Assembly (NCBI GenBank): GCA_964355645.1
Contig: CAYHDI010000002.1
Span: 11,452-75,451 of the forward strand
Reading direction: 5' to 3'
DNA: 64,000 nucleotides
Source of the DNA: an uncultured Candidatus Saccharibacteria bacterium
Lineage (GTDB): Bacteria > Patescibacteriota > Minisyncoccia > Phycocordibacterales > Zambryskibacteraceae
Position 1 is the stretch's first letter. Each line of letters begins with the position of its first letter. The position numbers and the translations under genes are program-made. Shown here in pieces: positions 9,212 through 51,087 of the stretch. The notes beneath the pieces are model-generated. The model saw only the letters and a program-made list of their open reading frames with translations, was not told the DNA's origin and did no database searches.

Positions 9212-9213
9212 AA

Positions 9214-12890: not shown

Positions 12891-12939
12891 GCGAAAAATA
12901 GTGTATTATTGTTTCGATATATCGATACAAAAACCGAAA

Positions 12940-12980
12940 CCCCTCTCCTTAATAAGGAGAGGGGCAGGGGTGAGGTGTAT
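12940..12980. repeat. GC-rich palindromic element, copy A (inner hairpin plus right outer arm)
   Basis: cccctctccttaataaggagaggggcaggggtgaggtgtat abuts the ftsZ stop codon. Confidence 0.6.
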
Positions 12981-36694: not shown

Positions 36695-37831
36695 ATGAAT
36701 CTTTTTTCTAAAAAACGAATCAATCTTGACTATGCGTCAGGGGGAGAGAATCCTTCGGCGATTTATAAGGAAGGGGTTGAGGTGAAGAGAAAATTAGAAA
36801 CCGCGCGAACAAAAATCGCTCGAGTCTTGGGCGTGCAATCAAGAGACATCATTTTCACTTCGGGCGGGACAGAATCAAACAACCTTGCTCTGCTTGGAGT
36901 TTTCAATGCGGTTAAAACACCGAGTGTTTGGAATCCCTTAACACTCGGTGTTGAAAGACCACATTTTATTATTTCTTCTCTTGAACATTCAGCCATTACA
37001 GAATGTGCTGAAGAGATTGTCCGTCGAGGTGGTGATGTGACCATTGTTTCCGCAGATGAAACAGGTCGAGTGAATCCTCAAGAAGTTTTAAAAAATATCA
37101 AACCGAATACCGTTCTCGTTTCTATTGTTTATGCGAGCAATGAAATAGGCACTATTCAACCAATTCACAAAATCTCACGTTTAATAAACGAATACAAAAA
37201 AGAACACGAAACGAACTTTCCTTATTTTCATACGGATGCCAGTCAAGCAGGGAAATATCTATCACTTCAAATTTCTTCACTCGGTGTAGACCTTATGACT
37301 CTCGATGCTTCGAAAGTTGAGGGGCCAAAAGGTTCCGGGCTTCTCGTTGTTCGCCCGAATGTAAATGTGGCACCAATAATTTTTGGTGGGGGACAAGAAA
37401 GAGGTTTGAGATCCGGAACTGAAAATGTCGAAGCCATTGTTCAATTCGCCGAAGCTCTCGAATCAGCTCAAAACAATCGAACGAAAGAATCCGAACGACT
37501 TTTTAAACTTCGAGATTATTTTATTGAGGAAATTTCAAAAAACTTTCCGAGAGCAACAATAAATGGAGGGGCAGCCACCGCCTCTCGCGGGGTCCCGCCT
37601 TCGGCGGTGAAAGAAACCTTGCCGAATATTGTGAGTATCACTTTTCCTAAACAACTGGCTGAATTTATGGCTATAAAGCTCGATCAAAACGGAATAATGG
37701 TTTCAGTTGGAAGTTCTTGCGATTCGAACAAAAGAGAATTAGAGAAGGAAGCCATTCGGTTTTCGTTCGGAGAGAAAACCACTCCCAAGGATCTTGAAAA
37801 AACAATTTATATTTTGAAGAAAATGTGCTAG
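36695..37831 (+). CDS. cysteine desulfurase (class V aminotransferase, IscS/NifS-like)
   Basis: It carries FTSGGTESNN and C-terminal ...SVGSSCDS. The ATG at 36695 lies 6 nt after TAGAAT. Confidence 0.75.
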   Translation: MNLFSKKRINLDYASGGENPSAIYKEGVEVKRKLETARTKIARVLGVQSRDIIFTSGGTESNNLALLGVFNAVKTPSVWNPLTLGVERPHFIISSLEHSAITECAEEIVRRGGDVTIVSADETGRVNPQEVLKNIKPNTVLVSIVYASNEIGTIQPIHKISRLINEYKKEHETNFPYFHTDASQAGKYLSLQISSLGVDLMTLDASKVEGPKGSGLLVVRPNVNVAPIIFGGGQERGLRSGTENVEAIVQFAEALESAQNNRTKESERLFKLRDYFIEEISKNFPRATINGGAATASRGVPPSAVKETLPNIVSITFPKQLAEFMAIKLDQNGIMVSVGSSCDSNKRELEKEAIRFSFGEKTTPKDLEKTIYILKKMC

Positions 37832-50037: not shown

Positions 50038-51087
50038 ATGAATTTTTGGAAAAAGCTCAAGAAACCATTTTTCTGCCTTGCACCTATGTCGGACGTGACC
50101 GACGTGGCTTTTCGATTTATGTTGGCCAAATACAGCAAGAACAGAGAAAACAAAGACCAAGTTGTTTTTTGGACAGAGTTTGTGTCTGCTGATGGCCTGT
50201 CGAACAAGCTGGCCAAAAAGAAATTAGCTCATATGTTGAAATTTTCTGAACGCGAGAGACCGATTGTGGCTCAAGTTTTCGGCGCTAACCCAGAGAATAT
50301 GAAGAAAGCTTGCCAATATATCGCGAGCCTTGGCTTTGATGGAATAGACATAAACATGGGTTGCCCGGACAAATCGGTCGTTAGTCAAGGGGCCGGAGCG
50401 GGATTAATTAAAACTCCCGAGCTCGCGAGGAAAATTATACAGTCGGCTCATGCAGGGATAGAATCTGCCGGTTTGCATATTCCTGTGTCGGTCAAAACAC
50501 GAATTGGTTTCAACAAAGAAGAAATAGATCAGTGGATTGGGGAATTATTAAAGGAGGATATTTCGGCTCTGACGATTCACTTACGAACGGCCAAAGAATT
50601 ATCTCTCGTTCCGGCGAATTGGGATTATATGAAAAAAATCAAGGAACTAATTACTAAAAGTGGCAAGGAGGTCTTGCTCATCGGCAACGGAGATATTAAG
50701 GATATGAAGGATGCGAAAAGCAAAGCCCAAGAATACAGTTGCGATGGAGTGATGATAGGTCGTGGAGTTTTTGGTAAGCCGTGGTTCTTCGCGGATCTTC
50801 ATTCACCTCACCCCATCTGCTCGCCCAGCAGTCGCCCCTCTCCTTGTCAAGGAGAGGGGAAGGGGGTGAGGTGTATTGAGGAGCAACTCAATATTCTTGT
50901 TGAACATACACAACTTTTTGAGAAGGAACTTTCCATATCAAAACACAAGAGTTTCGCCGTGATGAAAAAGCATTTCAAGGCTTATGTGAACGGATTCAAC
51001 GGGGCAGGGAAACTGCGCACAAAGCTTATGGAGACAAACAACTCACAGGAGGTGGAGAAAATAGTGAAGGATTTCCTAATCAAATAA
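50038..51087 (+). CDS. dus: tRNA-dihydrouridine synthase with an in-frame 27-aa insertion encoded by a palindromic element
   Basis: The N-terminus reads FCLAPMSDVTDVAFRFM...VFGANPENM.., a Dus TIM barrel. The inserted peptide HSPHPICSPSSRPSPCQGEGKGVRCIE is encoded exactly by repeat copy D. Confidence 0.8.
   Translation: MNFWKKLKKPFFCLAPMSDVTDVAFRFMLAKYSKNRENKDQVVFWTEFVSADGLSNKLAKKKLAHMLKFSERERPIVAQVFGANPENMKKACQYIASLGFDGIDINMGCPDKSVVSQGAGAGLIKTPELARKIIQSAHAGIESAGLHIPVSVKTRIGFNKEEIDQWIGELLKEDISALTIHLRTAKELSLVPANWDYMKKIKELITKSGKEVLLIGNGDIKDMKDAKSKAQEYSCDGVMIGRGVFGKPWFFADLHSPHPICSPSSRPSPCQGEGKGVRCIEEQLNILVEHTQLFEKELSISKHKSFAVMKKHFKAYVNGFNGAGKLRTKLMETNNSQEVEKIVKDFLIK
50802..50876. repeat. GC-rich palindromic element, complete copy D, inside the dus ORF
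   Basis: The sequence is ttcacctcacccc-atctgctcgcccagcagtcg-cccctctccttgtcaaggagagggg-aa-gggggtgaggtgtat. Confidence 0.7.

Follow-up and report, generated by a model that had tools for sequence, protein, structure and literature searches.

A palindromic triplex-motif repeat inserted in frame in the dus gene of a Patescibacteria bacterium and its possible link to a DUF559 nuclease cassette

A 64,000-nt stretch of DNA from an uncultured Candidatus Saccharibacteria bacterium (GenBank assembly GCA_964355645.1, contig CAYHDI010000002.1, positions 11,452 to 75,451 of the forward strand), referred to here as the window, carries a palindromic element of about 75 bp (50801-50876) within dus, the gene of a DusB-like tRNA-dihydrouridine synthase (50038-51087, plus strand). 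The element is a clean insertion of a member of a dispersed repeat family into a disordered linker of the enzyme. The explanation that we prefer, and to which a probability of about 0.6 is given, is that it is a gene-less, single-hairpin triplex-motif (TM) repeat, either a derivative or a companion of a cassette encoding a DUF559 nuclease, and that it is tolerated in frame in a permissive loop.

The dus open reading frame (ORF) encodes 349 residues and matches Pfam family PF01207 with E = 2.4e-58. It scores 217.7 bits against the NCBIfam DusB model, which is under the equivalog cut-off, and is 75-87% identical over its full length to Patescibacteria orthologues. The original prediction of an in-frame palindrome within an intact Dus ORF was borne out. 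The element reads catTCACCTCACCCC-at-CTGCTcgcccAGCAG-tcg-CCCCTCTCCttgtcaaGGAGAGGGG-aag-GGGGTGAGGTGtat, an arrangement in which outer arms nest a spacer hairpin and an inner hairpin, all four parts being described here on the plus strand. The outer arms, ATTCACCTCACCCC on the left (50801-50814) and GGGGTGAGGTGTAT on the right (50863-50876), are 14 nt each and 93% complementary. Both arms had been anticipated; the left arm had been given as beginning ATACACC, but in dus it begins ATTCACC, with one mismatch. The spacer hairpin, CTGCT-cgccc-AGCAG (50817-50831), was recognized from its sequence and fold and lies between the left arm and the inner hairpin. The latter, CCCCTCTCC-ttgtcaa-GGAGAGGGG (50835-50859), was identified by pattern match and as an inverted repeat; it has a perfect 12-bp stem with one pyrimidine and one purine strand. 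The right arm mirrors the purine stem and, judging from the triads that it could form, is a potential third strand.

The reading frame runs uninterrupted through the element and encodes the peptide HSPHPICSPSSRPSPCQGEGKGVRCIE; the segment encoded by the surrounding region 50790-50890 includes SPSSRPSPCQGEGK. Of the six frames in which the element can be read, three are open and, by our own estimate, an insertion with a length divisible by three would be readable with a roughly even chance, so the in-frame state of the insert requires only purifying selection. The element has a GC content of 61%; the remainder of dus has 43% and the window 42%. When folded as RNA, as had been proposed, the element gave -53.8 kcal/mol (z = -6.6 against dinucleotide shuffles, none of 200 shuffles being as stable). 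The arm sequence CACCTCACCCC has six matches in the window with at most one mismatch, five of them exact, where 0.37 are expected, and the inner-hairpin pattern occurs four times where 0.02 are expected. An additional arm-like match at 36774, with one mismatch and no hairpin match beside it, was treated as chance.

Comparison with orthologues showed that the element was added to a pre-existing linker. The nearest orthologue with DNA available for comparison (L001) encodes a Dus protein that is 82% identical, and its gene order matches that of the window: serS, an ftsQ-like gene, dus, a hypothetical gene and dnaX. Its dus aligns on both sides of the element and leaves a clean 66-nt gap exactly there. 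The peptide is as originally given, but relative to the nearest orthologue dus has gained a net 66 nt, or 22 residues, and not the 27 residues originally proposed. When 1.84 billion representative proteins were searched, many Dus alignments were found to break at query residues 252-258, and no unrelated bacterium was seen to carry the insert peptide in its Dus. With the empty site in L001, this agrees with the claim that the insert is lineage-specific. The identical insert-bearing protein (P0001) is present on three independent public contigs, which indicates that the insert is not a one-off assembly artefact. The names of the homologues (Minisyncoccota, Nomurabacteria, Paceibacterota) confirm that the genome belongs to the candidate phyla radiation (CPR).

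The same linker was surveyed in the 120 closest Dus proteins, all from Patescibacteria. A short linker of 10-14 residues separates the motifs GRGVFGNPWFF and EEKLxxLIEHT in 53 of them. The other 67 (56%) have an expanded linker, up to 44 residues long and thus 34 residues longer than the shortest, and all 67 remain in frame and free of stop codons. These expanded linkers fall into at least eight unrelated peptide families that resemble translated palindromes. The DNA of four orthologues was checked for linker inserts: a single decayed triplex-motif repeat was present in L203 and two variant repeats in L206, while the insert of L204 is a 22-bp hairpin, perfect and from an unrelated family, and that of L205 a long imperfect palindrome that is likewise unrelated. 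Furthermore, dus of a member of the Nomurabacteria (L007) carries, at this same site, a repeat of the window family that is inverted relative to the window copy and read in a different frame (FTSPPTPLLDKERGAKGEVRS), indicating that the linker has been struck more than once. Further inserts of repeat-like sequence, such as TTPSRSAGHPSLTGGE and SSPPFQGGVP, occur in more distant CPR Dus proteins (P0407, P0452, P0435, P0377); they lie in surface loops other than the linker, around query positions 30, 145 and 205, and Dus has thus been struck at several loops across the radiation.

The location of the insert was examined in an AlphaFold model of Dus built on a 37-sequence alignment (mean predicted local distance difference test score, pLDDT, 81.5; predicted template modelling score, pTM, 0.81). 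The insert falls in the coil 245-274, which connects the final barrel strand (237-240) with the helix that opens the C-terminal domain (275-298), and residues 255-273 have a pLDDT below 50. In the model the insert is a disordered loop that joins the TIM barrel to the helical domain, in line with the position that had been assigned to it. Nothing examined gave any indication that the insert benefits Dus.

Its sequence places the dus repeat among the variants of the G/C-rich intrastrand triplex motif, also called BoxC, PIT or TMECO, and the family is not specific to the CPR. Repeats of this family are abundant in E. coli, Enterobacter and the cyanobacterium Microcystis. To our knowledge, they have been known for about 30 years without a known origin or function. 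In E. coli and other bacteria the motif has successively been called BoxC, PIT and TMECO (Holder et al. 2015, PMC4666352). That study counted 3610 TMECO copies in 262 proteobacterial genomes, 23 of them in MG1655, and described the copies as "always intergenic" and as having no promoter or terminator activity. The triplex formed in vitro as single-stranded DNA and was undetectable in vivo, and the copies were tied to local instability, with copy numbers that differ greatly across strains (PMC4666352).

The repeat unit consists of CCCCTCTCC-loop-GGAGAGGGG followed, after 2-3 nt, by GGGGTGAGG; in the dus copy this spacer is aag, 3 nt. When GGGGTGAGG is set against the reversed GGAGAGGGG, nine of nine triads are of the allowed kinds (G.G, T.A and A.A). 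TMECO likewise has a C-rich stem, a short loop, a G-rich stem, about 3 nt and then another G-rich block in mirror symmetry with the purine stem, the blocks being CCCCTCTCC, GGAGAGGGG and GGGGTGAGG in dus and CCCTCTCCC, GGGAGAGGG and GGGTGAGGG in E. coli. Both are dispersed and multicopy, both include "palindromic TM" pairs and both mark variable regions. The dus copy does not fit the E. coli pattern CCCTCNCCC-N3-6-GGGNGAGGG-N3-GGGNGAGGG with one mismatch allowed; in the best register every one of the three blocks contains a single mismatch and the second spacer is 5 nt long. It is accordingly classed, on sequence, as a register variant (C4TCTC2) and not as the E. coli subtype. It also differs from TMECO in that it lies within a coding sequence and is presumably translated, whereas TMECO is reported to be intergenic, in its CPR host, and in that repeats of the window form the ends of a DUF559 cassette. 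Rfam assigned the dus element to no family, returning only chance microRNA-like hairpin matches with E > 0.2; at the gathering score only tRNAs were found in the window.

An exact-pattern scan of one genome per GTDB species recovered the repeat from at least 120 loci in more than 12 phyla. The matches include Bacteroidota, Chloroflexota, Cyanobacteria, Gemmatimonadota, Planctomycetota, Armatimonadota, Myxococcota, Alphaproteobacteria, Ignavibacteria, SAR324, Bdellovibrionota and Patescibacteria. The dus-type layout, consisting of an arm, a long spacer, one hairpin, a short spacer and an arm, also occurs in Cyanobacteria and Bacteroidota (L026, L045, L080).

The window itself holds four related pieces at three loci, in dus, next to ftsZ and in a cassette, in keeping with the earlier view of a dispersed rather than single-copy repeat; the coordinates and context given for the copies beside the ftsZ stop and around a DUF559 gene proved correct. 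A half element at 12940-12980, recognized by pattern and arm match, consists of the hairpin, ca and the right arm and stands directly past the ftsZ stop codon, the last T of its right arm being the last base of that codon. The third locus, 30 kb from the dus element, is a complete repeat-DUF559-repeat cassette (20881-21352, plus strand), identified from its repeats and a Pfam match. At its left end (20881-20937, plus strand) are the arm ATACACCTCACCCC, the spacer hairpin GCCACGtcggTCGTGGC and the hairpin CCCCTCTCCttgttaaGGAGAGGGG. The gene (20956-21309, plus strand) is free-standing, has its own ATG and encodes a Vsr-like, EDxHD-related nuclease of 117 residues (Pfam PF04480, E = 1.5e-31). The right end (21312-21352, plus strand) consists of the hairpin CCCCTCACCttagcaaGGAGAGGGG, ca and the arm GGGGTGAGGTGTAT. 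The "two halves" of the original prediction are thus the ends of a discrete nuclease cassette, and this cassette is the best lead to the origin of the repeats. The arms of dus and of the cassette are identical and have a common genome-specific extension, ...GGTGTAT. The dus hairpin is 97% identical to the left cassette hairpin over 29 nt (20911-20939), and over 56 nt the right end of the cassette shares 84% identity with the ftsZ copy. At the position matching the dus spacer hairpin, the cassette has a spacer hairpin of different sequence (20895-20912).

The cassette is a discrete unit that is found at different loci. In related genomes, an 83%-identical DUF559 protein (P0123) is encoded between pgk and a HIT gene (L208); the window holds neither of these genes. 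The similarity between the two cassettes begins at TACACCTCACCCC and ends at GGGGTGAGGTGTAT, that is, at the arms. Additionally, in a relative with a 92%-identical S1 protein (L210), the syntenic spacer between the S1 and Lactamase_B_3 genes is 159 nt long and contains neither the repeat nor DUF559. Spacers of 159, about 660, 1019 and 2046 nt, the last with three small ORFs, were observed at this position among close relatives, including L211 (955-3000) and the contig of P0243; the intergenic site is an insertion hotspot.

The association of the repeat with DUF559 is strong and directional in the genome sample. Statistics centred on the repeat were based on 133 repeat sites in 120 loci of the exact-pattern scan, from more than 12 phyla, and the following counts hold among the matches listed. 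A DUF559 profile match was present within 410 nt on the hairpin side of 10 of the 133 sites and on the arm side of none. Left-right repeat pairs shared one hairpin, as in dus, in 11 cases and enclosed 22-168 nt in 13. Seven pairs enclosed 300-1000 nt; six of these contained DUF559 and the seventh consisted of two unrelated repeats. DUF559 was the only recurrent cargo. Decayed DUF559 fragments were looked for beside gene-less repeats, and none was found except in L106.

Statistics centred on the nuclease were obtained from 80 metagenomic DUF559 loci. The strict repeat motif was found within 250 nt of the gene in 14 of the 80, at 0.61 per kb compared with 0.068 per kb elsewhere. A generic triplex-capable motif lay within 300 nt in 61 of them (3.04 per kb near the gene, 0.19 elsewhere) and was absent from the shuffled flanks of these loci. 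The mirror arrangement outnumbered the direct-copy control by 42 to 19. Moreover, hairpin and arm co-vary: GGAGAGGG goes with GGGTGAGG and AGGAGGGG with GGGGTGGT.

The window nuclease retains all invariant columns of a 22-sequence family alignment, including E64, D66, H70 and D79, which by analogy with Vsr and EDxHD enzymes are probably catalytic. The family profile matches 3hrl with E = 1.5e-30 and the catalytic domain of I-Bth0305I (3r3p) with E = 2.4e-5. Vsr, DUF559 and I-Bth0305I have been grouped together (PMC3424549, in agreement with PMC3384342 and PMC9403480).

The DUF559 gene is not always free-standing. In 15 of the 80 metagenomic loci and in several genome loci it lies in frame and co-oriented inside a long ORF, and a recognizable host gene was identified for most of these insertions. 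The inserts are 150-400 residues long, frame and freedom from stop codons are kept, and Pfam places the host domains on either side of the nested DUF559. The flanking peptides are encoded by the repeats, for example HLTPxPSPxxRG and SPSPxERGxGGEV. The hosts include leucyl-tRNA synthetase (LeuRS, leuS), chorismate synthase (AroC), MetH, RecG, GlgB, iPGM and acetylglutamate kinase, as well as type ISP and type IIG restriction-modification enzymes, in Bacteroidota and other phyla. Two sites recur in LeuRS, site 1 in L004, L071, L091, L152, L160 and L192 and site 2 in L160 and L163. One metagenomic LeuRS ORF (L160:876-3998) has two in-frame DUF559 insertions at two sites, each with repeat-derived flanking peptides. 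Pfam scans at E <= 1e-5 detected no Hint or intein domain in the repeat-flanked in-frame inserts. Solo repeats also occur in frame, in an alpha-2-macroglobulin-like gene, a MiaB-like gene and a TIR/FGE-sulfatase linker.

Several further observations concern nested elements. Two metagenomic DNA methylase genes (L154:84-4055 and L156:252-3299) have DUF559 between N- and C-terminal Hint parts. They show sub-threshold Intein_splicing and Hint matches together with C...LTADH...VHN|C residues, and these signs suggest that both methylases probably carry inteins that house DUF559. Five free-standing DUF559 proteins of about 116 residues (P0129, P0153, P0156, P0173, P0225) are labelled "leucyl-tRNA synthetase" in public sources, probably through annotation transfer from a LeuRS with a nested DUF559. 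The Nomurabacteria genome L203, which also has a triplex repeat in dus, has a palindromic copy in frame in the topoisomerase I gene topA (L203:4762-4814, ...FEIPSLSPTPLHYYGEGKARGEVETV...). A "split" topA in L205 was considered as a DUF559 insertion and rejected.

Under the preferred explanation, a repeat unit would enter dus in the stretch that links the TIM barrel to the helical domain, either alone, being mobilised in trans, or as a full cassette. In the second case, the nuclease gene would later be lost by recombination between the two 25-nt hairpins of the cassette. The insert would have persisted because it changes the length by a multiple of three, the frame used is free of stops and the Pro/Ser/Gly-rich peptide falls in a disordered surface loop; the ribosome would read through it and Dus would gain about 22 residues. 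Copies within genes in general would survive solely in permissive loops, and only if they keep the frame and bring in no stop. The spread of cassette and repeats would be driven by DUF559 or by the repair of breaks that it makes. Three things are inferred from these patterns: the repeats are moved by the nuclease or by break repair, a cassette is the ancestor of the dus copy, and the ribosome reads the insert, which is not removed. A wider proposal, which we put forward tentatively and at somewhat less than even odds, is that BoxC/PIT/TMECO repeats in general are the cis-acting ends and the decay products of minimal DUF559 cassettes found across phyla. Such cassettes would give a homing-type nuclease gene a third mode of residence in essential genes, nesting in frame as a permanently translated domain, neither intron nor intein, joined to the host by repeat-encoded Pro/Ser/Gly linkers, and would leave gene-less copies in permissive loops.

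The principal alternative is that the repeats spread by themselves, through slippage, template switching, host recombination at hairpin or triplex DNA, or some transposase, and that DUF559 is secondary, a homing-type gene that settles by repeats, so that the dus copy was never linked to it. This is considered unlikely, and several observations that favour it also weigh against a leading role for the nuclease. Most repeat sites have no DUF559 nearby; among the matches listed, the gene adjoins only about 7.5% of them, and it was found at 0 of 50 repeat sites in viral contigs. Repeat orientation about DUF559 in the metagenome sample is mixed, the ratio of outward to inward being 14:9 by our own count and 21:21 in a second analysis. 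Some DUF559 genes are flanked by directly oriented repeats, and so a simple terminal-inverted-repeat transposon model misfits some cases. Two-hairpin gene-less pairs could act as empty target sites. The same Dus linker hosts at least seven other unrelated palindrome families, which suggests that no single nuclease matters more than the permissiveness of the site together with some general property of palindromes. Furthermore, Holder et al. tied the repeats to local instability without mobility genes, such functions being "never found" near the E. coli repeats (PMC4666352).

Four further points tell against the involvement of DUF559 at dus or in the family at large. No DUF559 was found at the Dus linker in the 120 close homologues or, among the 150 listed representatives at 50% identity, in the 10 longest, which carry other inserts. 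No target-site duplication, sought as a direct repeat, was present at the element borders. At least 3346 of 5426 E. coli genomes have the complete fabI-ycjD-sapF arrangement. Finally, the suggestion that DUF559 cuts the repeats draws on their association in sequence. Self-spread is nevertheless opposed by three findings: the empty site in L210 lacks repeat and gene together, a single case that concerns the window cassette; the L208 cassette at another locus keeps the same outer boundaries at the arms; and DUF559 is the only recurrent cargo, restricted to the hairpin side by 10 to 0 among the matches listed.

E. coli K-12 offers a further instance of the association. In the stretch examined, ycjD is the only DUF559 gene, and TMECO#9 lies about 170 nt downstream of it. 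Around ycjD (L122, K-12 1351040-1351830), a degenerate repeat hairpin overlies the stop codon and a fragment of the gene's own 3' end is duplicated. Among 5426 complete E. coli genomes, 2080 (38%) diverge from K-12 about 40 nt before TMECO#9. This divergence was considered as a clean empty site and rejected; in the one genome examined, of ST131 (L212), it is a large island replacement.

The possibility was also considered that the insert is kept because it is useful, either as a flexible linker that tunes Dus domain movement or tRNA binding, or as an mRNA hairpin that pauses ribosomes or stabilises the transcript. The very stable fold, the exact position at a domain boundary and the expansion of the linker in more than half of the close orthologues are in its favour, as is the half copy next to ftsZ, which appears to be co-opted as a terminator. 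On its minus strand (12939-12965), that copy scores as an intrinsic terminator with a 12-bp stem followed by TTCGGTTTTT, and such co-option is possible on this sequence evidence. However, the linker inserts are unrelated in sequence, in length (up to 34 additional residues) and in reading frame, the closest relatives are without the insert, and the loop is predicted to be disordered. This pattern suits tolerance better than selection for a given peptide or structure, and a useful insert is regarded as improbable.

It is much less probable still that the insert is absent from the mature product, whether removed from the mRNA as an intron or a bulge-helix-bulge-like structure, bypassed by the ribosome or excised from the protein. 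The outer arms do bring both ends together in the predicted fold, and a precedent among nuclease-associated coding gaps, T4 gene 60, is mentioned in a preprint (bioRxiv 10.1101/2022.08.31.505936). However, open frames are kept in the dus insert, in the 67 expanded orthologue linkers and in the 150-400-residue DUF559 inserts, which would be needless if they were removed before translation; the element matches no Rfam family, and the repeat-flanked inserts have no Hint or intein domain in the Pfam scans. A palindrome that arose by chance, a linker ancestral to Dus or a chimeric assembly is excluded by the four related pieces where about 0.02-0.4 are expected, the empty closest orthologues, the identical protein on three contigs and the motif in at least 120 loci of other genomes.

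The preferred explanation, a cassette-related repeat tolerated in a loop, may be compared with three kinds of known system. Rickettsia palindromic elements (RPEs) are about 150 bp long and ten families have been reported from Rickettsia, each coding for a conserved peptide (Ogata et al. 2000, as cited in PMC10969869). The parallel with RPEs that had been drawn holds for behaviour, since the frame is kept and no stop codon is introduced: unrelated housekeeping genes contain palindromic repeats in frame, which would be translated as additional peptide where the fold of the protein permits, and the repeats have no transposase of their own. The likeness is one of description, and the dus element differs in being 75 bp long, in belonging to a cross-phylum family that is read in several frames and in having a candidate partner in DUF559. 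The claim that such behaviour in a CPR genome is noteworthy therefore stands for the RPE-like in-frame insertion, but the repeat family itself had been described earlier and crosses phyla (PMC4666352). The element is RPE-like in its working and of the BoxC/PIT/TMECO class in its architecture, from which it departs in register, gene location and association with a nuclease.

The second comparison is with EDxHD or Vsr-like homing endonucleases such as I-Bth0305I (Dassa 2009, PMC2677866; Taylor 2011, PMC3239194) and with inteins. The nuclease of the cassette falls within the Vsr/DUF559/I-Bth0305I clade (PMC3424549). As with homing endonucleases, cassette DUF559 recurs at the same LeuRS sites, is missing from the syntenic L210 site and takes up the Hint-slot position in the two probable inteins; as with inteins, it resides in frame within essential genes. 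In contrast to introns and inteins, repeat-flanked DUF559 showed no recognizable intron or intein domain in the Pfam scans, so no means of removal from the product is evident. Its 40-nt triplex-motif flanks and its very diverse insertion sites set it apart from homing endonucleases, and unlike I-Bth0305I the window protein is a minimal 117-residue nuclease domain without extra DNA-binding domains.

[quoted passage not shown] As in MITEs, the arms and hairpin of dus match the ends of a longer coding element in the same genome (20881-21352), and gene-less copies resemble internal deletions of the longer element. Short repeats with terminal inverted repeats or hairpins far outnumber the coding partner, as in both MITEs and REP-RAYT systems, and the hairpin-forming ends resemble those of REP and IS200/IS605 elements. 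However, no target-site duplication was seen and the partner is not a known transposase. No DDE or Y1 (RAYT/TnpA) transposase gene was present in any cassette examined, and the cargo is a PD-(D/E)XK-type nuclease, which is incapable of strand transfer alone.

In the literature searched, the in-frame translated repeat in dus and the linker hotspot appear undescribed, as do the link between repeat and DUF559 cassette and in-frame nesting without a recognizable intron or intein domain. No paper was found that links the repeats to DUF559 or reports in-frame repeat-DUF559-repeat nesting or in-frame CPR palindromes; the library searched is incomplete and a prior description is possible. If the connection to DUF559 is true, puzzling repeats that have so far only been correlated with genome instability would gain a testable origin, and they would be accessible in a model organism, since E. 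coli has both the repeats and a DUF559 gene, ycjD, adjoining one of them. It would also point to a possible new lifestyle for homing-type nucleases, nested in LeuRS, MetH, RecG and other enzymes without splicing machinery. It would further bear on protein-domain insertion, on the erroneous naming of small DUF559 proteins as "leucyl-tRNA synthetase" and on nuclease discovery. In the compact genomes of the CPR, surface loops of housekeeping enzymes would then be landing pads for selfish palindromes, adding to the unusual protein insertions of these organisms. If the DUF559 link fails, a clear RPE-like case outside Rickettsia remains, of moderate interest.

Other features were observed in the neighbourhood of the cassette. 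The segment 20892-20958, which comprises the spacer hairpin, the repeat hairpin, the ribosome-binding region and the ATG of the DUF559 gene, matches Rfam RF03036, "osmY RNA", at 30.9 bits (E ~1e-5; gathering score 46.9), and this motif may partly model leaders of repeat-DUF559 cassettes. To the right of the cassette is a GC-rich, ORF-poor region of about 390 nt (21353-21746) that is missing from the 159-nt syntenic spacer of L210. Compared with shuffles, the fold of 21375-21625 is better on the minus strand (z = -3.0) and not on the plus strand (z = -1.2). The region matched no Rfam family, and no tRNA or tmRNA was found in it; it may be a second inserted element or a novel noncoding RNA.

Two more palindromic families, AATCCGCCAGCTGGCGGAG and ACCTAGCAAGAACGGTTCTTGCT, are dispersed in the window, the first at 18942, 22103, 24595, 57073 and 57154 and the second at 9213, 19393 and 61082. 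Both are probably terminators and unrelated to the triplex-motif repeats.

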